Source of the DNA: Patescibacteria group bacterium
GTDB lineage: Bacteria > Patescibacteriota > Minisyncoccia > 2-02-FULL-40-12 > GWA2-44-9
Assembly (NCBI GenBank): GCA_038062135.1
Contig: JBBTXT010000007.1
Location: 1-59,945 of the forward strand
Reading direction: 5' to 3'
DNA: 59,945 nt
Below are positions 1 through 59,945 of the stretch, piece after piece. The notes beneath the pieces are model-generated. The model made no database searches and was not told where the DNA came from. It saw nothing but the letters and a program-made list of their open reading frames with translations. How positions within the stretch are numbered: position 1 is the stretch's first letter; every line of letters starts with the position of its first letter. A program made the translations under genes and the position numbers.

Positions 1-420
1 GTGGAGATGTGGGGAATCGAACCCCAGTCCGTAATTTTATCTGTATGGCGTGTACTGTGATAGCCGATTTGTTAGGCGAGAGGTTATGAAATCGGCAAAA
101 GAACCTCTCGTGTGCTTTCCTTATCTTAATCCAGGGCCGGGAAAACGGCGGGCCTTGAATGCAGTTCGCTGAATGACACCCTAGACCCACCAAAGCAAAG
201 CTTTGTTGGGTCGGGCGACCCAACCACGAAGTGATTGGGTTTAGCCCCGTCTGCTAGCGAACATCGCAGTAGGATGGCGTACCTAACCGAGGTTAGGCAA
301 ACGCGTAATTGCTGGAATGTGAATTGCCAGTTATATGTTTGGCCGGTGATTTAAGTGGTGACAGCCTTCCACCCGCAGCGCGATACAGATTGTAAAACAA
401 CGTCGAAACCGATCATCCCC
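1..420 (-). ncRNA. ssrA: tmRNA (SsrA); 3' terminal CA of CCA lies outside the window
   Basis: Minus strand starts GGGGATGATCGGTTTCGACG (from 420) and ends GGACTGGGGTTCGATTCCCCACATCTCCAC (at 1). tRNA-Ala-like acceptor GGGGATG/CATCTCC with G3:U pair; T-arm GGTTCGATTCC; internal tag frame; smpB nearby. Confidence 0.92.
293..328 (-). other. tmRNA tag-peptide reading frame GGC AAT TCA CAT TCC AGC AAT TAC GCG TTT GCC TAA = GNSHSSNYAFA*
   Basis: Preceded by ...ACATATAACT, like the usual resume-codon context. The hydrophobic YAFA C-terminus resembles canonical YALAA-type degradation tags. Confidence 0.6.
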
Positions 421-1852: not shown

Positions 1853-2296
1853 CTAATCTTCGGACATTCCGCGCTGTTTAGAGCGGGCAACATCTTTCTT
1901 TTTGATGGCTTCGCGCTTGTCGTATTTCTTTTTACCTTTTGCGATGCCGACGGACAGCTTTACGCGTCTGCCTTTTGCATATAGTTTAAGCGGAATGAGC
2001 GTTAAGCCGCGTTCTTTGGTGAGACCGATAAGGCCGTTGATCTCGCGCTTGCTCAAAAGAAGGGGGCGACTGGCATCCGGATCATAGGTTTCTGGGGTGT
2101 TGCCGGGCTGATAGGGAGCGATGTGGGCACCGATGAGCATCGGTTTGTCGCTGATTATTTTAACGTATGCTCCGCGCAACGACGCTTTGCCATCGCGGAT
2201 CGCTTTTACCTCAAATCCTTTCAAAACCAAACCCGCCTCTACTGTTTCAAGGATTTCGTAGTCAAAACCGGCTCTTGGGTTGGCGGCGTACTCCAT
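1853..2296 (-). CDS. smpB: SsrA-binding protein SmpB
   Basis: 147 aa; LLLSKREINGLIGLTKERGLTLIPLKLY and GIAKGKKKYDKRE match the SmpB family pattern; next to ssrA. Confidence 0.95.
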   Translation of the reverse strand: MEYAANPRAGFDYEILETVEAGLVLKGFEVKAIRDGKASLRGAYVKIISDKPMLIGAHIAPYQPGNTPETYDPDASRPLLLSKREINGLIGLTKERGLTLIPLKLYAKGRRVKLSVGIAKGKKKYDKREAIKKKDVARSKQRGMSED

Positions 2297-3447: not shown

Positions 3448-5304
3448 GTGCCTATGGGAAATATAGACACGGGATACAGTTCGCTGACCGAGTACAAAGA
3501 GTCCGTAGAAAAGGATGTTAAAAATTTGGTTAGAAAAAAGGGAAAAGAAAAACAAGAAAGAGATTACATCAAACATTCGTCTTATGCGATATCTCGTATA
3601 AAGGAGGAGATATGCTTATTGTTTAATAATAAATACGATCTAACGGGCGATACAAAAAAAATAAACATCTCATTGCCTCCCAAGCATATACATGCCGATC
3701 TAACGGTATCAGTTTTTGATTACTCAAAAACTCTTAGGAAGTCTCCAGCTCTTCTAGCGAGAGAACTCGCGGACTTTATTAATACTTCGCAAAAAAAATA
3801 CATTGAATCCGTCAGCGCTAATAATGGTTATATAAATATCTTAATAAACAAAAAAGAATTTTATAGCCAAATCCTTTCTTCCGTTTTAAGACTTGGCGAC
3901 AAATATGGTTTCTCGGATGTTTATAAGGGTAAGACGGTGCTTATAGACTACTCTTCCCCGAATATTGCTAAGCCGTTTGGAATTGGCCATTTACGCTCCA
4001 CAGTAATAGGACAGGCATTGGCGAATTTATATTATGCTGTAGGTTATTCGGTAATACGTGATAATCATTTGGGGGATTGGGGAACACAATTTGGTGCGCT
4101 TATTTATGCGTATACGCATTGGGGCGATGAAGCCGTTATTGCCGCCAACCCAATTGAGGAATTAAAGAATTTGTATGTCCGATTTACAGAGGAAGCAAGA
4201 GAACAACCAGCACTGAAAGAGGAAGCACGGAAATTATTTTCTCAATTAGAACAGGGCGATGAAGGGTTAGTTATCCTTTGGAAAAAATTTAGAGAGCTAA
4301 GTCTTCAAGAATTCCAAAAAACTTATGATAGGTTAAATGTTTCGTTTGATTGTATGTTGGGTGAAAGTTTTTACACGGAAGATTTTAATAAAGTTATCCG
4401 AGATCTAAAAGAGAAAGGAATCGCAAAAGATTCTGAAGATGGTGCTGTTATTGTGGAAAATCTGGACAACTTACCATCATTCTTACTACAAAAGAATGAT
4501 GGCTCGACCATTTATATTTTACGCGATGTAATAACTGTGATGTATAGAAAACGTGTTTTTAATCCCGATGTGGTTCTTTATGTTGTTGGTTCCGAACAAA
4601 AACTGAATTTTCAGCAACTTTTTGCTCTTTGTAAGAAGGCCGGCTATTCGGGTGATATTAAAATGGAGCATGTGGATTTCGGGTTGGTTTTAATAGGTGG
4701 CGTGAAGATGTCTACCAGAAAGGGGACACTGGTCAACCTTGATGAAGTGCTTAAGCAGGTGATCGCGAAGGCACGCGATCTGCTTTTGGAAAAGGGTGAG
4801 TTGGATGTTTCTGTTCTAAATAAAACCTCCGATACTATTGGCATAAGTTCTGTTATCTATGCAGACCTTAAGCAAAACCGTAATAGTAATATTGAATTTG
4901 ATTGGCAAAAAATGTTGAGTTTGGAGTCTGGTAGCAGTGTTTATCTCCAATATACTTATGCCAGAATTGCTTCCATCCTTACCAAGACAAATGTCGCGCT
5001 CCCATTTAAGAAAATTGACCCTATATATTTTGTGCAGGATGCGCTCGAATTCAAGTTGGCTGTTAGATTGAGTTTATTTCCTGAAACAGTCTTGCATTCG
5101 GTTGAAAATAATACCCCACATTTTATCAGCGCCTATTTAGAAGAATTAGCTGCTGAATTTAATAATTTTTATACGCAAGTTTCTATATTAAAGACTGCTG
5201 ATAGCGCGTTACAAAAATCAAGGATTGCGCTAATAGCCGCGGTTGCCACCACAATAAGGAATGGACTTTCTTTATTAAATATCCCAACTCTCTCGAGACT
5301 CTGA
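3448..5304 (+). CDS. argS: arginine--tRNA ligase (about 45-aa N-terminal extension; start GTG 3448 or ATG 3454)
   Basis: SSPNIAKPFGIGHLRST (HIGH region), MSTRKG (KMSK-like), DWGTQFG, YLQYTYARI. AT-rich compared with its neighbours. Confidence 0.95.
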   Translation: MPMGNIDTGYSSLTEYKESVEKDVKNLVRKKGKEKQERDYIKHSSYAISRIKEEICLLFNNKYDLTGDTKKINISLPPKHIHADLTVSVFDYSKTLRKSPALLARELADFINTSQKKYIESVSANNGYINILINKKEFYSQILSSVLRLGDKYGFSDVYKGKTVLIDYSSPNIAKPFGIGHLRSTVIGQALANLYYAVGYSVIRDNHLGDWGTQFGALIYAYTHWGDEAVIAANPIEELKNLYVRFTEEAREQPALKEEARKLFSQLEQGDEGLVILWKKFRELSLQEFQKTYDRLNVSFDCMLGESFYTEDFNKVIRDLKEKGIAKDSEDGAVIVENLDNLPSFLLQKNDGSTIYILRDVITVMYRKRVFNPDVVLYVVGSEQKLNFQQLFALCKKAGYSGDIKMEHVDFGLVLIGGVKMSTRKGTLVNLDEVLKQVIAKARDLLLEKGELDVSVLNKTSDTIGISSVIYADLKQNRNSNIEFDWQKMLSLESGSSVYLQYTYARIASILTKTNVALPFKKIDPIYFVQDALEFKLAVRLSLFPETVLHSVENNTPHFISAYLEELAAEFNNFYTQVSILKTADSALQKSRIALIAAVATTIRNGLSLLNIPTLSRL

Positions 5305-5339: not shown

Positions 5340-7307
5340 ATGCACAAAATAGATTTTAATAATATAGAGTGCCACGCACATGATTTTGCTAACCTGATCG
5401 TCAGAAGGAGGGGTTCTATCCATCGGGTATTAAGGCAGTATCAAAGCAAAGAGGTTGTTGATGATGAAATATGCCGCACGGTAGAAATGTTGAATAGTAT
5501 TCACGAACTAAAGGAGTATTTCTCTGGAAAAGTAAACCAAATTTCCGTATTTCTACCGCTAAATCTACCGCTGTACTCTTTTGCTCTCTTCGCTGCCATT
5601 CCGTCCTATCAGGCGCGATACTTAATAGTGCGTGCTCCTGAGAAAATGACCACGATATTTCGTGAATTGTGCAAGGCGCTTTCATTAGATTCTATTTTTA
5701 AAAACATTTCTTTCTTTGAAGGTGGGCGGCAGGACTTTTTGGATGAGTATTGTGTCAAGTCCGATGTAATAATTTTCACCGGAAAATATGAGAATTTTGT
5801 AAAGATTAGAGAGCTATGTGGGAAGAAAACCCTTATTCTATTTAATGGTGTCGGTCATAACCCTATTTTGGTCACAGAGACAGCTAACATCGAAAATGCA
5901 GTTGAAAAGACTTTACATGTAAAATTATTCAATAATGGTCAAGATTGTGCTGGACCAGATATGATTTTGGTTCACTCTACGGTGGTAGGGCGTTTTTTAA
6001 ATTTACTAATAAAGAAGTTGAAGGCTGTACGGGCAGATTTTGATTATGAAGATAATGATACAAGAGTGGGCCCGGTTTTTGAATTTTCCTCACTCGGTCA
6101 GTTTAGTAAAATAATACGGGATGTTCTAAAGTGTGGCGGGAAGGTGCTTGAGGGAGGTATTGTTGATTACAAAAACAACATTATCTATCCTTGTGTTTGT
6201 AGTAATTCTTTGCGGGACTACGTTAATTTTGAAGAGTTATATAGCCCAATCTTTTTAGTAGCGGAATATTCAGATGATGCTGAATTAAGCCTTTATTTTG
6301 ATGACTCCCACAAAAGGTATACGGAAAAGCAGATGTATGTATCGGTCTTCGGTCAAAGTAGGTATGTTAACGAGAAATTGCCTGGTACTATTCCATTAAA
6401 AAATATATCAGTTCACGATGCAGAAAGAGGGGTCGAGGAGTATGGTGGCTACGGTCTAGGTGCATCCGCAGTTTCGTTTAACAGACTTATTATTCCAAAA
6501 CCCATATTGGTTCCGCGAGAAATTTATACGTATATTCTCTCTCCTTACAATGAAGCCATAAAACGGGGAAATGGATTGGAGAGTGCTGTAATTGAGAAGC
6601 TTTTTAAGGAGACAGTACTAAAGATCTTTAAAGAAAACCTCGTATTCGCATATATTTTCGGTAGCTATGCGCGAAATCGTGCGAAATCATTTAGCGATAT
6701 CGATACTTTTGTCTGTGTTCAAAGAAAGGACGACAAACAAATACGCCAATATCTTGAGTGGATTTTTGAAATATCCGAAGTCTTTGGGAAAATTCCAGAT
6801 TTTAGATATCCAGTAGAGATAGTAGAGTTTGGACAGTTGGAAAATGCGGTAAAGTCCTTTGATGATTTGACTCTTGCCGCTGACATTAATTCGGCTGATA
6901 AGTATGACTCGATGATTTGGTTGCACTCGCTTTCGCATTATAAGATTGCCTTGGTAGGAGAAATCCCGGAAGGATGGGAAGCGGTTTTTCCTGCTAACTC
7001 AAGTAGGATACTCAAATCTTTTCTTGATGATTTAAGGGAGAAAATTGTCAGTGGTATTTTACCAGCAAATCATAATTATTTTTCTGAAATCCCTACCAGC
7101 ACAGATGAGGTTGATAATTATATAAATAACCTAGGAAACGGGAAAAAACTGATAGATATATTGAAGTATATCTATTTCGATGAAAAGCCAGTATTCACGA
7201 AGGATGTCCTCGAGATAATTCAATCAAGAGCCTTTTTTGGAAGAAAGATTATGATCGGAAATGGAACAACCTTTTTGGATAAAAGTTTTAGGTTCGGTGT
7301 TGTATAA
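5340..7307 (+). CDS. fusion protein: ALDH-superfamily (LuxC/acyl-CoA-reductase-like) domain + Pol-beta-type nucleotidyltransferase with helical C-terminal region
   Basis: ALDH blocks in order: LPLNLPLY (PWNFP-like), FTGKYENF (FTGS-like), FNGVGHNPILV (ELGG position, Glu absent), FNNGQDCAGPDMILVH (catalytic Cys), EELYSPIF (EEIFGP-like). Then the NTase motif GSYARNRAKSFSDIDTFV. Confidence 0.75.
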   Translation: MHKIDFNNIECHAHDFANLIVRRRGSIHRVLRQYQSKEVVDDEICRTVEMLNSIHELKEYFSGKVNQISVFLPLNLPLYSFALFAAIPSYQARYLIVRAPEKMTTIFRELCKALSLDSIFKNISFFEGGRQDFLDEYCVKSDVIIFTGKYENFVKIRELCGKKTLILFNGVGHNPILVTETANIENAVEKTLHVKLFNNGQDCAGPDMILVHSTVVGRFLNLLIKKLKAVRADFDYEDNDTRVGPVFEFSSLGQFSKIIRDVLKCGGKVLEGGIVDYKNNIIYPCVCSNSLRDYVNFEELYSPIFLVAEYSDDAELSLYFDDSHKRYTEKQMYVSVFGQSRYVNEKLPGTIPLKNISVHDAERGVEEYGGYGLGASAVSFNRLIIPKPILVPREIYTYILSPYNEAIKRGNGLESAVIEKLFKETVLKIFKENLVFAYIFGSYARNRAKSFSDIDTFVCVQRKDDKQIRQYLEWIFEISEVFGKIPDFRYPVEIVEFGQLENAVKSFDDLTLAADINSADKYDSMIWLHSLSHYKIALVGEIPEGWEAVFPANSSRILKSFLDDLREKIVSGILPANHNYFSEIPTSTDEVDNYINNLGNGKKLIDILKYIYFDEKPVFTKDVLEIIQSRAFFGRKIMIGNGTTFLDKSFRFGVV

Positions 7308-7878: not shown

Positions 7879-10800
7879 GTGACTATGCCTGCCGTTGACT
7901 TTGGAAAGCTGGAAGAAAAAATACTAGCGTTCTGGGAAGAGCACAAGATTTTTGAAAAAAGCCTTGAATTGCGGGGCGGAAAGCGCAAAAAGACTTTCGT
8001 GTTCTTTGAAGGCCCGCCGACTGCGAACGGCCGCACGCACGTCGGTCATTTTTTGACGCGCATTTTTAAAGACGTCTATGGGCGCTACAAAACCATGCGT
8101 GGGTATTATGTTCTGCGCAAGGCCGGCTGGGATACTCACGGTCTGCCGGTTGAACTTGAAGTAGAAAAAGAACTTGGCTTCAAAAGTAAAAAAGATATTG
8201 AGGCGTACGGCGTCGCGGCGTTTAATAAAAAGTGCCGCGAGAACGTTTGGAAATACAAAAAAGAGTGGGAAGTCATGACGCGCCGGATGGGGTTCTGGGT
8301 TGATACGGAGCATCCGTATGTAACCTACGCCAATCCGTACATTGAATCTCTCTGGAATATCATCAAGACCGTGGCGGATAAAAAGCTTTTATACTTGGCG
8401 CATCGCGTGGTGCCTTACTGCACACGTTGTGGAACCGGACTCTCAACGCACGAACTTGGTCAACCAGGAGCCTATAAAACAGTTACGGATACCTCGGTCT
8501 ATATTAAATTCAAATTAAAGTCGGGGCAAAAAATAGGTGAGCACACAGTTCCAAGTAATGCCTTTGTGCTTGCTTGGACAACTACACCCTGGACATTACC
8601 GGGCAATGTTGCGCTAGCGGTTGGTAAAGATATTGAGTATGTAATCTCAACACAGGAAATTAATAATAAAAAAGAAACGCTCATTCTTTCTAAAGATCTC
8701 TATGAAAGACCAACAGCAGGATTTCTTCCTGAACCCGATATATCTTTCTCGTTGCCCGAATATGTTAAGGGTGTAGACCTGGTCGGGCTTGAATACGAGC
8801 CGCTCTTTGATGTGCCCGCCTTAAAATCCGAAACATCGTACAAAATTTATCCAGCAGACTTTGTGACGACCACCGATGGTACGGGCGTGGTCCACACCGC
8901 CGTCATGTACGGCGAGGATGACTACAATCTCGGCAACGCGCTCGGTTTGCCAAAAGTACACACAGTGGATGAGGCTGGAAAGTTTTTCGGAGTTTCCGAA
9001 GAACTGAATGGAAAATATGTCAAAGCTGGAAAAACCGAAGAAACGATCATAAAAAGCTTAGAAGCCCGTGGGCTGTTATTAAAAACCGAAGCCTACGAAC
9101 ATGAATACCCTCACTGTTGGCGTTGCGATACTCCGCTCCTGTATTACGCCAAGAGTTCTTGGTTTATCAAGATGTCGGCGGTTAATGAGCAAATTCTTAA
9201 GGCTAACAGCACCATAAACTGGTTTCCGGACCACATAAAAGAAGGAAGGTTTGGCCAATGGCTTAAAGAAGGAAAAGATTGGGCGTTTTCGCGCGAACGC
9301 TATTGGGGCACGCCGTTGCCGGTTTGGAAATGTGTCAAATGTTCCGCTTATCATGTTATTGGTTCGATGGAAGATTTAAAAAAGGAAGCGGTCTCGCAAT
9401 CGGGAAATAATTATTTTTTGATGCGTCACGACCTTTCCGGGCGTGATGAAAACGGAAAGATGCTCGTCAGTTCAAGGAGAGAGACCGATACTTATCATTT
9501 GACCGAAGCCGGCCAAAAACACGCGCAAGAAACCTTGAAACGTTTAAAGCGCAAGCTGAACATTGACGTTATCTACGCGTCACCGTTCCTAAGAACGAAA
9601 GAAACCGCCGAAATTGCCGGGCAAGTTTTCCATTTGCCGGTTGTTGAGGATGAACGATTATCAGAAATACGGCATGGCATTGAATGCGAAGGCAAGAGCC
9701 ATCAGCAATGCGTATTGGACCGCGAACGCAGGAGCTTTGACACGGTTGAAGACGGCAGTGAAACTCTCAACATGGTTCGCGAACGCGTGATGACATTTAT
9801 GCGAGAAGTTGACGGGCAATACCGCAATAAAAATATTCTTGTAGTCAGCCACGGCGATCCGATCTGGGTTCTTGAAAAAATGGCTGATGGGAAGAGCGAG
9901 GCGGAGGTTGTTGCTGAACATGAATCCAACCAGGGCTGGATGCCGCAGATCGGCGAAATCAAAAAAATAGAATGGCCGGCACTTCCTCGCAACGAAAGAG
10001 GGGAACTGGATCTCCATAAGCCTTATGTTGATGAGGTGACTTTTCAGTGCGACCAGTGCGGCGCGCAGATGCACCGCGTGCCGGAGCTGTGTGACGTTTG
10101 GTTTGATTCCGGTTCCATGCCGTTCGCGCAGTGGCATTGGCCGTTTGAAAATCAAAAACTTTTCCAGTCCCAATACCCGGCGGATTTTATTGTGGAAGCG
10201 GTGGATCAAACCCGCGGCTGGTTTTATACGCTCCTGGCCGTAGCCACGCTTATGGATCGCCCAGCACCGTTTAAAAATGTAATTGTGCTTGGATTAACTT
10301 TGGATCCGAAGGGCATGAAGATGTCCAAGTCAAAAGGGAATGTTATGTATTCAGGTGAAGCGATGGATGCCGCCGGCGTTGATGCCGCACGCTGGCGAAT
10401 GTTCGTCATGAGTTCGCCGGAAGATAATAAGGTTATTTCCGCCCAGGATTTCCAGGATACGTTAAACGGCTTTCTCTCCACGCTTCAGAACTGCCTAAGG
10501 TTTTACGAATTGTATACCCAGACTAACCAATCGCCATCCGGCGATGTACAGCCGAATATCCTGGATCGCTGGCTTTCTTCAAGACTTCATAATGTTATCC
10601 AGGGCGTGACCGAAAGTTTGGAAAACTATAACCCGACCGGAGCTGCACGCACGCTTGAACAGTTTGTGGTGGAGGATTTCTCAAACTGGTGGTTGCGCCG
10701 CTCGCGAAAACGTCCCGAAGCGCTGACTTTGTTGCGGCAAGCTCTCCTACATATCTCAAAACTGGTTGCGCCGTTTATTCCGTTCACAGCCGAAGATATG

Positions 10801-11391
10801 TTCGCGCGCCTGAATGGGCCTGAAGCGGTTGGTCAGGAGAGCGTGCACCTGGCAGATTGGCCTAAAGCAGAGAAGAAGTTTATTAACGCTAAACTTGAAG
10901 AAACGATGATCAGGGTGCGCGAGATTGTCGCTGCCGGATTGGCTATCCGCAAAGAAAAGCAGATCAAAGTTCGCCAACCATTGGCGTCTATAATCTTACC
11001 CGACAAGAAACTTGATGCGGGTCTTGAGGCGCTTATTAAAGACGAACTCAACGTAAAGGGCGTGGTTTATAAGAAAGGCGTTGAGCTGTCGCTGGACATG
11101 AGTATGTCGCCGGAACTTATTGCTGAAGGATATGCCCGCGAGGCAATGCGCCAGATTCAAGACCTTCGCAAAGATGCCGGCTATCGTTTTGACGACAAGG
11201 CATATTGCCAGTGGTTTACGGAAGATTCCGAATTGTCTGAAGCGTTGTTAAAATGGGGCGATGATATTAAGCGCGACACTTCGCTGTCGGAGTTCGTTAA
11301 ACTTATCCTTGACGACAAGCGCGCCTACGATATTGAAAAAGAATTTGAAATCGTTCCCGGTAAAAAAATATGGGTCGGTATTAAAAAGTAA
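7879..11391 (+). CDS. ileS: isoleucine--tRNA ligase carrying an internal histidine-phosphatase domain insertion
   Basis: PTANGRTHVGH (HIGH), KMSKSKGN (KMSKS), WAFSRERYWGTPLP, Zn knuckles CWRC / CVKC / CDQCG. 1170 aa. Start GTG 7879 or ATG 7885. Confidence 0.95.
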   Translation: MTMPAVDFGKLEEKILAFWEEHKIFEKSLELRGGKRKKTFVFFEGPPTANGRTHVGHFLTRIFKDVYGRYKTMRGYYVLRKAGWDTHGLPVELEVEKELGFKSKKDIEAYGVAAFNKKCRENVWKYKKEWEVMTRRMGFWVDTEHPYVTYANPYIESLWNIIKTVADKKLLYLAHRVVPYCTRCGTGLSTHELGQPGAYKTVTDTSVYIKFKLKSGQKIGEHTVPSNAFVLAWTTTPWTLPGNVALAVGKDIEYVISTQEINNKKETLILSKDLYERPTAGFLPEPDISFSLPEYVKGVDLVGLEYEPLFDVPALKSETSYKIYPADFVTTTDGTGVVHTAVMYGEDDYNLGNALGLPKVHTVDEAGKFFGVSEELNGKYVKAGKTEETIIKSLEARGLLLKTEAYEHEYPHCWRCDTPLLYYAKSSWFIKMSAVNEQILKANSTINWFPDHIKEGRFGQWLKEGKDWAFSRERYWGTPLPVWKCVKCSAYHVIGSMEDLKKEAVSQSGNNYFLMRHDLSGRDENGKMLVSSRRETDTYHLTEAGQKHAQETLKRLKRKLNIDVIYASPFLRTKETAEIAGQVFHLPVVEDERLSEIRHGIECEGKSHQQCVLDRERRSFDTVEDGSETLNMVRERVMTFMREVDGQYRNKNILVVSHGDPIWVLEKMADGKSEAEVVAEHESNQGWMPQIGEIKKIEWPALPRNERGELDLHKPYVDEVTFQCDQCGAQMHRVPELCDVWFDSGSMPFAQWHWPFENQKLFQSQYPADFIVEAVDQTRGWFYTLLAVATLMDRPAPFKNVIVLGLTLDPKGMKMSKSKGNVMYSGEAMDAAGVDAARWRMFVMSSPEDNKVISAQDFQDTLNGFLSTLQNCLRFYELYTQTNQSPSGDVQPNILDRWLSSRLHNVIQGVTESLENYNPTGAARTLEQFVVEDFSNWWLRRSRKRPEALTLLRQALLHISKLVAPFIPFTAEDMFARLNGPEAVGQESVHLADWPKAEKKFINAKLEETMIRVREIVAAGLAIRKEKQIKVRQPLASIILPDKKLDAGLEALIKDELNVKGVVYKKGVELSLDMSMSPELIAEGYAREAMRQIQDLRKDAGYRFDDKAYCQWFTEDSELSEALLKWGDDIKRDTSLSEFVKLILDDKRAYDIEKEFEIVPGKKIWVGIKK
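9406..9990 (+). other. in-frame histidine-phosphatase (PGAM-like) domain inserted in IleRS
   Basis: Motifs in order: FLMRHDLSGRDENG, ASPFLRTKETAEI, ERLSEIRHGIECEG, ILVVSHGDPIWVL. Flanked by IleRS segments HVIGSMEDLKK and ELDLHKPYVDEV. Confidence 0.8.
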
Positions 11392-11408: not shown

Positions 11409-11666
11409 ATGGAAGAACAAAAGAAAAAGTTTAACGTAAGGATGTTTGGACTAAGTATTCTCCTCTACTATATCGTAAATGTATGGCTTGCCATTGTCTT
11501 TGGAATCCTGTCGATAAGTTTAGGCAGAAATTATGGGATAGCAATTTCTTTGTTAGTCGCAGTTTATTTTTATCAAAAAAATCGAGACAAGTTAGATATA
11601 AAGAAAGAAATAATATGGGTAGGATGCGGTGCGCTAATAACTGCGCTTGTTCTGGTGCTTCTCTAG
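11409..11666 (+). CDS. small membrane protein, 85 aa
   Basis: Three hydrophobic segments. Follows ileS by 17 nt. Confidence 0.5.
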   Translation: MEEQKKKFNVRMFGLSILLYYIVNVWLAIVFGILSISLGRNYGIAISLLVAVYFYQKNRDKLDIKKEIIWVGCGALITALVLVLL

Positions 11667-11721
11667 ATGAAAAGAGTTTTTATTATTCATGATCTGGAAG
11701 CATTGCCGCTGGGTAAAAAAA

Positions 11722-12255
11722 ATGAGAACACTCGCAATAGTAATTAAGCGCCAGCCGACAAATGAGTACGATCTTCTGGTAACTCTGTATACCCAGGAGC
11801 TGGGCAAACTGACCGCAATCGCCAAGAGTGCGCTCAAGCCGAGCTCTACCCAGGGATCCCATTTGGATTCCTATAATCTTATTGATGTTGAGCTGGTTGA
11901 CGGCAAGTCCTGGCCAATTATGGCAGGGGCGCAGTGCCTGGACGGGCGCCGACACATAAAATCTTCGCTTTCCAGCTTAGCCATAGCCGGATTTTTTACC
12001 GAGGCAATTCATAAAATAGTTTTTGACGGGCAAAGAGACGATGAGCTATGGGACTTTTTAAACAACGTATTTGATAGCCTGAACGGCCCGAAAGGTTGTG
12101 ACGATGCAACCTTTGCCGGATTCCAGAGGGAGTTGATAACAGTTTTAGGACACGGCGCCCAAAAAGAAAATCTTCAAGCAACGCTTGACCGTTTAGCTAA
12201 TGCGCGCCTGGCATCGGGAAGTTTACTTCGCCGGGTGCGGGTTGTGCTACAATAA
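11722..12255 (+). CDS. recO: DNA repair protein RecO (short form)
   Basis: MRTLAIVIKRQPTNEYDLLVTLYTQELGKLTAIAKSALKPSS: OB-fold N-terminus typical of RecO. The ATG at 11722 is preferred over the track start 11689. Confidence 0.8.
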   Translation: MRTLAIVIKRQPTNEYDLLVTLYTQELGKLTAIAKSALKPSSTQGSHLDSYNLIDVELVDGKSWPIMAGAQCLDGRRHIKSSLSSLAIAGFFTEAIHKIVFDGQRDDELWDFLNNVFDSLNGPKGCDDATFAGFQRELITVLGHGAQKENLQATLDRLANARLASGSLLRRVRVVLQ

Positions 12256-36198: not shown

Positions 36199-36284
36199 TG
36201 GTGCCCGGGGTGGGACTTGAACCCACAAGGGCTTGCGCCCACACGATTTTGAGTCGTGCGTGTATGCCATTCCACCACCCGGGC
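36199..36284 (-). tRNA. tRNA-Leu (anticodon CAA), CCA encoded
   Basis: Acceptor GCCCGGG/CCCGGGC; anticodon stem CACGA/TCGTG with loop CT-CAA-AA; long variable arm; T-arm GTGGG-TTCAAGT-CCCAC. Confidence 0.93.
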
Positions 36285-59304: not shown

Positions 59305-59945
59305 ACGGGCTTTGCCACGCCGTAGGTTCGCTTCGGCGAACCGAAGGCGGGAGTAGTACAGTGGTAGTACGGTTGCTTCCCAAGCAACAGATGCGGGTCC
59401 GATTCCCGTCTCCCGCTCCAGAATTAGACCTTCCGGTTTTTGACCGACGAATCGGTGGGCGGCACGAAGTGCCGCCCATTGGTTTTCCCCCGACAAATCC
59501 TCTCCGCTCGGAGCGCGGAGGCGCGCCTCGCGGTTGGCTAAAACGAGGTTCGAGCCGAACACTTGTTCGGCAGCAACCTTTTTTAGAAAAAGGTTGCTAT
59601 CCCTTGCGGTTTTCTCAAGAGAAGAAGCGACTTTTATCCATTCTCTCATCGGTTCGAGCCAACCATTCTGCTTTTGTTCAAGATTGGTCATTTGCTCCTC
59701 CAGCGACTTCTTTTCGGAAAGGAGTTTGGCTTTTTCAGTTCGGTAAATCTCGCGGTCTATGTCCTGCTCCAAATAGCCGTCAAGAAGTCGCTGGAGTTTG
59801 GTGGCAATGACTTTGATTCTCTCTTGGCTTGTTTGAACAAAAGCAGAAACGGATTGGGCGGACTTTGATTTGTCTTTTTCTAATTTTGCATTTAGTTTTT
59901 CCGCCCAATCCGCAGGCAAAGAAACTTTTTGAAGCAGAGAGGAAA
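59254..59945 (-). CDS. C-terminal fragment of a large serine recombinase-like protein (5' end outside the window; the portion left of about 59421 is antisense to tRNA-Gly and doubtful)
   Basis: Frame is open to the window edge. KLQRLLDGYLEQDIDREIYRTEKAKLLSEKKSLEEQMTNLE is a coiled coil, and FGSNLVLANREA..NQWAAL resembles recombinase C-termini as I recall them. Confidence 0.55.
   Translation of the reverse strand, partial: SSLLQKVSLPADWAEKLNAKLEKDKSKSAQSVSAFVQTSQERIKVIATKLQRLLDGYLEQDIDREIYRTEKAKLLSEKKSLEEQMTNLEQKQNGWLEPMREWIKVASSLEKTARDSNLFLKKVAAEQVFGSNLVLANREARLRAPSGEDLSGENQWAALRAAHRFVGQKPEGLILERETGIGPASVAWEATVLPLYYSRLRFAEANLRRGKARLFSKCIIQPVFNFCQK
59347..59420 (+). tRNA. tRNA-Gly (anticodon CCC), CCA encoded
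   Basis: Acceptor GCGGGAG/CTCCCGC; D-arm GTAC-AGTGGTA-GTAC; anticodon arm GTTGC-TTCCCAA-GCAAC; T-arm GCGGG-TCCGATT-CCCGT. Confidence 0.92.
59457..59486 (+). terminator. hairpin GGGCGGCAC-GAA-GTGCCGCCC followed by ATTGGTTTT, downstream of tRNA-Gly
   Basis: 9-bp GC stem and a T-run. Lies antisense inside the recombinase frame. Confidence 0.4.

Follow-up and report, generated by a model that had tools for sequence, protein, structure and literature searches.

A histidine phosphatase domain within the CP3 zinc knuckle of a patescibacterial isoleucyl-tRNA synthetase

The gene of interest, ileS, lies on the forward strand of a 59,945-nucleotide stretch of DNA from a Patescibacteria group bacterium (GenBank assembly GCA_038062135.1, contig JBBTXT010000007.1, positions 1 to 59,945; hereafter, the window). 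It encodes a type-2 isoleucyl-tRNA synthetase (IleRS) in which an additional domain of about 200 amino acids, belonging to the histidine phosphatase superfamily, is nested in frame between the two cysteine pairs of the CP3 zinc knuckle (Table 1). Members of the same phosphatase subfamily are found as free-standing proteins encoded between argS and ileS, and as fusions to arginyl-tRNA synthetase (ArgRS) and to TsaC.

A second enzyme fold inside an isoleucyl-tRNA synthetase

The window IleRS is read from a single unbroken open reading frame (ORF) of 1170 codons, as an earlier, preliminary description of this DNA had held. The database version of the protein (P0113, recorded as 'class I tRNA ligase family protein [Patescibacteria group bacterium]') starts at an ATG at position 7885 rather than at the GTG at 7879; the sequence GGAG lies immediately 5' of this ATG, which is likely to be the true start and would give a product of 1168 amino acids. 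Despite the insert, the protein passes the cut-off of the ileS model TIGR00392 (853.4 bits; cut-off, 621.4). Pfam finds tRNA-synt_1 in two parts around His_Phos_1, together with Anticodon_1 and DUF5915, and the DUF5915-type C-terminus (PF19302) is among the features that mark the protein as a type-2 IleRS, the eukaryote-like, mupirocin-resistant type. The best relatives in the PDB are Thermus thermophilus IleRS (1ILE) and Priestia megaterium IleRS2 (8C8U), which share its domain order, HIGH and KMSKS motifs, CP1 domain, CP3 zinc motif and DUF5915 region (phmmer E=1e-227 to 1e-235). The match to 1FFY, of the S. aureus/E. coli type 1 in which the C-terminal domain binds zinc, is weaker (3e-92). 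A full-length AlphaFold2 model gave TM(target) scores (template modelling scores relative to the target) of 0.78–0.86 to 8C8U and 1ILE in Foldseek; this search matched ordinary IleRS structures only, and returned no PDB entry with both folds. Among 45 homologues, H57 of the HIGH signature and the CP1 residues W233, T234–T236 and D348 are invariant, and K814, S816 and K817 of the KMSKS loop are invariant in homologues as well. With HIGH, KMSKS, editing motifs and zinc ligands all intact, the synthetase is functional-looking at the level of its sequence.

The CP3 subdomain of T. thermophilus IleRS carries a zinc-binding motif, and the topology of CP3 varies among IleRSs (PMC7191050). In the window protein, the two cysteine pairs that align to this motif are 235 residues apart (clade range, 218–238; median, 233), while only about 37 residues separate them in 1ILE and 8C8U; the surplus forms a second enzyme fold. 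Each of the four cysteines (C485, C488, C724 and C727) is invariant in the conservation set of 121 sequences, which consists of the window protein and its 120 best homologues. Alignments to 8C8U and 1ILE stop at query residue 504 and restart at residue 709. When the insert is removed in silico, the flanks become colinear with residues 428–564 of 1ILE and 425–567 of 8C8U, with a gap of only two residues, and the ~200 extra amino acids therefore represent a clean insertion. The preliminary description had reported about 195 residues intervening between canonical IleRS flanks, and in this it was correct; it had, however, put them between the zinc-knuckle/CP region and the second Rossmann half. 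The alignments instead place the phosphatase domain inside the knuckle, which it splits into C485/C488 and C724/C727. Similarly, a domain is present at the previously given limits of 9406–9990, but residues 505–708 are the better bounds. As a separate observation, some nested IleRSs (e.g., those with 'VCPNGNFQFPISNFQTNPKSKIPNSKHENGCGN') have an extra low-complexity insertion of 20–35 amino acids between the cysteines of the first CxxC half, a further sign that insertions are tolerated in the CP3 knuckle.

Table 1. Features of the window IleRS, its nested phosphatase domain and its conserved neighbours (window coordinates)
Feature	Position	Strand	Residues or size	Basis or conservation
argS (ArgRS), conserved upstream neighbour	3448..5304	+	618 aa	Pfam; synteny at 58/80 loci
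ileS, type-2 IleRS with nested phosphatase	7879..11391	+	1170 aa from GTG 7879
HIGH signature (HVGH), class I catalytic site	8038..8049	+	54-57	Translation
CP1 editing domain	8479..9114	+	~201-412	Editing-domain structures 1WK8/1UDZ match residues 198-412
WTTTPW inside CP1	8575-8592	+	233-238	Translation
CP3 zinc knuckle, first half (C-V-K-C)	9331..9342	+	C485, C488	Aligns to T. thermophilus IleRS C461/C464
Nested His_Phos_1 domain (PhoE/PspA-like)	9391..10002	+	505-708	PF00300, AlphaFold2, Foldseek
Nucleophile motif R-H-D	9424..9432	+	516-518	RHG in 104/121, RHS in 14, RHD in 3
Second phosphate-binding Arg (SPFxRT motif)	9592..9594	+	R572	Invariant, 121/121
General acid/base Glu	9664..9666	+	E596	Invariant, 121/121
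Cys pair of cap region, with H599 and H608	9685..9711	+	C603, C611	Nested clade only
Second catalytic His (H-G-D-P-I) in signature H[GA][DH]P[LIM][WF]	9850..9864	+	H658	H658 invariant, 121/121
CP3 zinc knuckle, second half (C-D-Q-C)	10048..10059	+	C724, C727	Aligns to T. thermophilus IleRS C502/C504 region
KMSKS loop	10318..10332	+	814-818	Translation
recO-like gene, conserved downstream neighbour	11689..12255	+		RecO_N; present at 51/80 loci

The unusual arrangement could, in principle, be an assembly chimera, or a selfish element of an intein-like or mobile kind, either excised from the protein or of no consequence to it. Genomes of the candidate phyla radiation (CPR) are known for unusual insertions, and some relatives of the window protein carry multiple copies of the domain. 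Both versions of this explanation are effectively refuted. A chimera is ruled out by (i) the occurrence of the identical protein on seven contigs from NCBI, ENA and Logan sources, (ii) the absence of any discontinuity in GC content at the insert junctions, and (iii) the results of a locus scan for the subfamily motif, with one genome per GTDB species: among the best 80 of 308 matching loci, which were fetched, 78 encode the N-terminal IleRS part, the phosphatase and the C-terminal IleRS part colinearly in a single frame. An intein or mobile element is ruled out by a Pfam scan of the window IleRS, which gave no Hint/intein or homing-endonuclease match, and by the junctions themselves (...KKEA|VSQSGNNY... 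and ...PRNERG|ELDLH...), which have no Cys/Ser start and no His-Asn-Cys/Ser/Thr splice end; the earlier remark that intein-like boundaries are lacking holds. The domain is also under strong purifying selection (see below).

The homologue survey of CPR genomes that had been proposed for this insert found the architecture to be widespread. All 120 best full-length homologues carry PF00300 (53–86% identity, 1121–1224 amino acids), and the nested loci come from Yanofsky-, Azam-, Jorgensen-, Harrison-, Specht- and Liptonbacteria, Paceibacter and others (Paceibacteria/Parcubacteria lineages). When 1.84 billion representatives were searched exhaustively and without a profile, 348 matches reached E<=1e-10; among the matches listed with at least 260 amino acids, nearly all are nested IleRSs or fragments of them. 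A word-indexed search in which the query was a 250-aa fragment, made up of the insert and flanks of 25 aa, returned only free-standing phosphatases of ~200 amino acids and missed the parent protein, a result that reflects a limitation of the index and is no sign of rarity, given that the full-length search finds nested homologues. Judging by these sequences, the nested architecture is fixed in a large Paceibacteria clade, whose members are ultra-small bacteria.

The family of the insert is clear from both profile and structure searches, each of which had been suggested as a check on the preliminary description. PF00300 matches the whole protein at E=5.6e-26 and the segment 9406–9990 alone at E=1.9e-27, far above the gathering threshold (91.8–96.6 bits; cut-off, 21.7), and the four ordered histidine phosphatase blocks noted earlier were recovered. 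The domain ends in a tail, WxP..GE.KK, that is homologous to the tail of free-standing phosphatases. AlphaFold2 modelled the insert plus knuckle with a mean local confidence (pLDDT) of 87.7 and a predicted TM score (pTM) of 0.85; in the full-length model (pLDDT 83.6), blocks of the insert mostly score 82–96, falling to 59 at residues 611–620. In these models the insert is an independent alpha/beta domain with the fold of the phosphoglycerate mutase (PGAM) type. Foldseek matched it to PGAM-fold phosphatases at probability 1.00, the top hits being 4IJ6, 1H2E and 4PZ9 (TM(target) 0.68–0.76), and to cofactor-dependent phosphoglycerate mutases (dPGMs) too; it superposes better on ~200-aa phosphatases (0.74–0.76) than on the longer mutases (0.60–0.67).

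Four more specific identities were considered and rejected: (i) dPGM (NF038349, dPGM_arch, 71–76 bits against a cut-off of 225, with other dPGM models far below, and a domain of ~200 amino acids against ~230–250 for mutases), (ii) PspA-type phosphoserine phosphatase (NF045917, 52–58 bits against 350), (iii) the alpha-ribazole phosphatase CobC (TIGR03162, 56–62 bits against 163), and (iv) SixA (TIGR00249, 27–32 bits against 74.5). The nearest characterized structures, H. thermophilus iPSP1/PspA (4IJ5/4IJ6), G. stearothermophilus PhoE (1H2E) and M. tuberculosis Rv2419c GpgP (4PZ9), are short phosphatases of branch 1 of the superfamily and share the ~200-aa fold and the R-H/R/E/H constellation. 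The window domain differs from them in being only 20–24% identical, in its private HGDP(L/I)W signature and nested-clade cap Cys pair, and in that, in the window lineage, it is never free but embedded in an aminoacyl-tRNA synthetase (aaRS).

This Cys pair belongs to a cap motif of the nested clade, H-G-x-x-C-E-G-K-x-H-x-x-C (window positions 9673–9711, residues 599–611), that replaces the usual G-x-W-E-G. In the conservation set, C603 and C611 are each present in 100 sequences, H599 in 102 and H608 in 63; the Cys pair is absent from the free-standing proteins. The Cys/His cluster may form a small metal site.

Conservation within the insert is uneven. It is the least conserved region of the protein (mean identity 41–44%, versus 57–74% in the core), and in spite of this R516, H517, R572, E596 and H658 are invariant. 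Apart from an Asp where RHG has its glycine, the window copy shows the sequence and fold features of PF00300. The same RHD motif occurs in its database twin P0113 and in P0114, which together with the window protein make up the three RHD sequences of the set; RHA is seen in other family copies, and the glycine position tolerates small changes. Comparison of the window gene with that of P0114 (locus L087; 86–88% identical) gave pN 0.078 and pS 0.72 for the insert, and a dN/dS of ~0.03 (0.033); outside the insert dN/dS is 0.04–0.10, and 0.10 in the editing domain, all of these ratios being approximate owing to saturated dS. The low value for the insert indicates that selection preserves the domain, the RHD lineage included.

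These observations bear on whether the domain is an enzyme at all. It could instead be a non-catalytic module with a structural, ligand-sensing or interaction role (e.g., binding a phosphorylated metabolite and thereby tuning IleRS), especially in the RHD lineage; the Asp shared by the window protein and its close relative, and the low overall conservation of the insert, would fit such a module. However, five catalytic residues that never vary at ~42% insert identity are typical of active enzymes and not of pseudo-enzymes, purifying selection persists in the RHD lineage, and RHS and RHA variants also occur in related copies. We consider a non-catalytic role improbable. The preliminary description had called the phosphatase probably catalytically competent, which is reasonable for the family, given the invariant quintet and the purifying selection, and less certain for the RHD copy of the window.

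Free-standing and fused relatives at the argS–ileS locus

In the window, the gene order is smpB, argS, ileS, recO, a DUF11/CLIPPER protein gene and a class II aaRS gene, with the phosphatase inside ileS. The recO gene anchors this locus as positionally equivalent across lineages, since the same order is seen at six other loci (L077, L081–L083, L086 and L089). At one of these, from Nealsonbacteria (L077, 7239–7838), the phosphatase is a free-standing protein of 199 amino acids. Its gene stops 11 nt short of a type-2 ileS that lacks the insert, and recO lies downstream. A search with this protein revealed a family of ~190-aa proteins (P0392–P0511) from Nealsonbacteria-type Patescibacteria. On all four long contigs examined (L081, L082, L083 and L086), the order is smpB (minus strand), followed by argS, phosphatase, ileS and, further on, recO; the argS, phosphatase and ileS genes are separated by gaps of 1–7 nt or overlap by 4 nt. 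The IleRS beside the free-standing phosphatase is insert-less and 36% identical to the window IleRS.

The free-standing phosphatases resemble the nested domain in their signature, C-terminal tail and neighbourhood, and differ in being encoded by a separate gene, in their canonical RHGET motif, in the absence of the Cys pair and in charge (median isoelectric point (pI) 10, versus ~6.4 for the nested copies). The signature H[GA][DH]P[LIM][WF] is present in 100/120 nested copies and 92/119 free-standing proteins of the argS–ileS type, and in 0/110 generic phosphatases. The tail is likewise common to nested, free-standing and fused forms, and the insert corresponds to an entire free-standing protein. 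A rough neighbour-joining tree (BLOSUM distances, no support values, unreliable for long-branch multi-copy sequences and used for this relationship only) places the free-standing proteins, together with those fused to ArgRS and TsaC, as the sister group of the nested clade, a relationship that the private motif supports too. The closest generic free-standing homologues, P0010 and P0002, sit in unrelated genomic contexts (ABC transporters, OsmC), which indicates that the linkage to aaRSs is specific to the HGDP(L/I)W subfamily.

Two fusions extend this linkage. Firstly, P0381 (L089, 5001–7070) is an ArgRS with a phosphatase of the same subfamily at its C-terminus; recO follows it directly and ileS is not there, so that here the phosphatase stays with the locus or with ArgRS, and not strictly with IleRS. 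Secondly, in P0322 (L090, 977–2140; a single 3.7-kb contig), a phosphatase of the subfamily is fused to TsaC (Sua5/YciO/YrdC), which acts in t6A synthesis.

In further IleRS-like proteins there are two, three or four His_Phos domains, which belong to different lineages of the superfamily from that of the window domain. Examples are P0256 (a cluster found on six contigs, the longest of 1.06 Mb), P0276 (1419 amino acids), P0355 (1468 amino acids), P0305, P0353 and P0363. The domains occupy three sites: CP3 (site A), the region after the WFDSG strand (site B; window residues ~750–765) and the region before the anticodon-binding domain (site C; residues ~884–895). Nearly every copy keeps the RH(G/A)...R...E...H motifs. 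P0363, whose synthetase part shares just 24% identity with the window IleRS, may be a different class I enzyme. His_Phos lineages appear to have entered IleRS independently at three or more loops, in up to four copies. Within the window itself, there is neither a second His_Phos gene nor a second ileS.

Possible roles of the phosphatase

Phosphatases of the subfamily differ in charge according to their arrangement. Per 100 amino acids, the free-standing enzyme carries a net charge of +10 to +12 in four of five loci (family median pI 10.0, net +20). In the same loci, SmpB and IF3 carry about +9 to +13, the aaRSs +1.5 to +6, and OMP decarboxylase, the GATase-domain protein and RecO about 0. The C-terminally fused copies are intermediate (+5), and the nested copies are slightly negative (-1). 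This gradient suggests that RNA binding is intrinsic to the free enzyme, and that the nested enzyme depends on IleRS for it.

The reading that we favour, albeit tentatively, is that the domain is catalytically active as a phosphomonoesterase in partnership with the aaRS/tRNA machinery, and that its substrate class is most likely a tRNA-borne phosphate. The enzyme would act via phospho-His517, and selection would tie it, physically or transcriptionally, to class I aaRSs because the tRNA-charging machinery would be where its substrate arises, or what delivers it. An example would be a 2'/3'-phosphate or pyrophosphate at the tRNA 3' end, which would block aminoacylation; once it had been removed, next to the synthetic site, charging could proceed. 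The free-standing enzyme would have RNA affinity of its own through its very high positive charge, while the nested, neutral enzyme would borrow the tRNA binding of IleRS. The change from RHG to RHD in the window lineage may alter activity or specificity. Two independent genomic signals, the argS–phosphatase–ileS operon and the ArgRS and TsaC fusions, point to an unrecognised phosphorylated substrate in tRNA charging. It is these signals, along with the RNA-binder-like charge, that lead us to favour a tRNA- or aaRS-linked role over the detoxification of an inhibitor, and, in view of the charge gradient, the most attractive candidate substrate is a phosphate carried on tRNA, for instance at a blocked 3' end.

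In a more specific and, in our estimation, rather unlikely form of this proposal, the phosphatase would be a third catalytic site of the synthetase that unblocks 3' ends (2'/3'-phosphate or pyrophosphate) immediately before aminoacylation, either as a nested domain or in trans from the argS–ileS operon, throughout Paceibacteria. The phosphates to be removed would be those left on tRNA ends by ribotoxins, RNases or toxSAS-type enzymes.

Several points weigh against a role in tRNA charging. We know of no member of the histidine phosphatase superfamily that is established as a tRNA-end phosphatase. Substrate specificity cannot be read from homology, since no curated subfamily cut-off is passed, and the window copy has lost the glycine of RHG. 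The charge argument is weakened by one of the five loci (L083), where the free-standing phosphatase carries only +2.6 per 100 amino acids, and by the fact that high charge is partly lineage-wide: the genomes have 35–38% GC, and their aaRSs are also basic. In compact genomes, gene adjacency readily yields fusions without a mechanistic link. Finally, CP3 is structurally variable and peripheral (PMC7191050), and is perhaps just a permissive insertion site.

Some of these points converge on the main rival, a housekeeping metabolite phosphatase (acting on a sugar phosphate, phospho-amino acid, nucleotide or pyrophosphate-type by-product) that has hitch-hiked into ileS. Here, fusion would be a result of the compactness of Paceibacteria genomes and of the position of the gene between argS and ileS, nesting in CP3 would be tolerated, and the arrangement would be mechanistically meaningless for aminoacylation. 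The best structural neighbours are metabolite phosphatases (the phosphoserine phosphatase iPSP1, PhoE and Rv2419c); the ArgRS fusion can be explained by loss of a stop codon between adjacent genes; the phosphatase persists at the L089 locus even though ileS is not adjacent; CP3 varies among IleRSs; and the nested copies are not basic. On the other hand, insertion mid-way into a downstream essential gene is not simple read-through, independent His_Phos lineages occupy at least three different loops of IleRS, with as many as four copies, and all of the fusion partners found (IleRS, ArgRS and TsaC) are tRNA-handling, adenylate-forming enzymes. In addition, the free-standing form is charged like RNA-binding proteins and unlike OMP decarboxylase, the GATase-domain protein and RecO. 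On balance, we regard hitch-hiking as possible but doubtful.

A protein phosphatase that guards IleRS and ArgRS is very improbable. Such an enzyme would strip inhibitory phosphate placed on the synthetase (e.g., on a Ser near the KMSKS/ATP site) by HipA/HipT-like toxin kinases, and the superfamily includes protein phosphatases such as PGAM5, Sts-1 and SixA. The partners IleRS and ArgRS are both class I synthetases, the extra His_Phos domains of other IleRSs flank the KMSKS region (sites B and C), and the catalytic machinery is conserved. Nevertheless, no kinase partner is seen in the conserved neighbourhood, the score against the SixA model is far under its cut-off, and both the TsaC fusion and the strongly basic free-standing form are left unexplained.

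Neighbouring features and relation to known architectures

A number of further observations concern the locus. Between argS and ileS, at the position of the free-standing phosphatase in other lineages, the window encodes a 655-aa ORF (5340–7307, plus strand) with an aldehyde-dehydrogenase-like region and a Pol-beta-type nucleotidyltransferase domain; homologues lie near ileS at only 3/80 related loci, and are absent from L087. Between ileS and recO, lineages with the free-standing phosphatase encode a conserved, very basic protein of ~98 amino acids that has no Pfam match and follows the pattern MG(I/L)(Y/F)DKK...GG..Y...FG.KYG..ISK..Y (L081, 8489–8785; L082, 9536–9832; L083, 9505–9804; L086, 8503–8796; L077, 10642–10953). 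The window has an unrelated, hydrophobic 85-aa ORF in its place (11409–11666). In L077, a putative reverse-transcriptase-like ORF with a YSDD motif (6139–7197) lies directly upstream of the phosphatase gene, where other genomes have argS. A tmRNA gene (tag GNSHSSNYAFA; 1–420, minus strand) is found at the window edge, close to smpB (1853–2296, minus strand). Both tRNA genes of the window, Leu-CAA (36199–36284) and Gly-CCC (59347–59420), appear to encode CCA ends.

Aminoacyl-tRNA synthetases are among the best-studied enzymes and, to our knowledge, editing domains are essentially the only catalytic domains that are nested in their cores; CP1, the editing domain of IleRS, is one such domain and lies within the Rossmann fold. 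We found no curated model for a phosphatase nested in CP3. Two models describe related combinations: NF040702, an IleRS with an additional enzyme domain (GNAT N-acetyltransferase), against which the window protein scores 310 bits versus 1999, and NF005567, a bifunctional RNase H/acid phosphatase of the Rv2228c type that joins His_Phos to a nucleic-acid enzyme (57 bits versus 326). In literature on IleRS or aaRSs, histidine phosphatases or PGAM, and CPR or Patescibacteria, no description of the nested architecture was found. The preliminary description knew of no such aaRS, and had allowed that the insertion might prove to be a common IleRS subtype. No paper describing it was found, but the architecture is common in databases, in records deposited since the GW2011 genomes under the names IleRS or 'class I tRNA ligase family protein'. 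It is known to databases and not to the literature, its sequences having been public for years under generic names.

The name 'class I tRNA ligase family protein' conceals a second enzyme in hundreds of database entries. If the substrate of this enzyme is a blocked tRNA end, the domain would represent a novel route of tRNA repair and add a function to the histidine phosphatase superfamily; if the phosphatase unblocks 3' ends, repair or quality control of tRNA would be coupled to an aaRS in a new way. If, alternatively, the substrate is a metabolite, the nested phosphatase would be an example of extreme genome compaction driving enzymes into essential genes.

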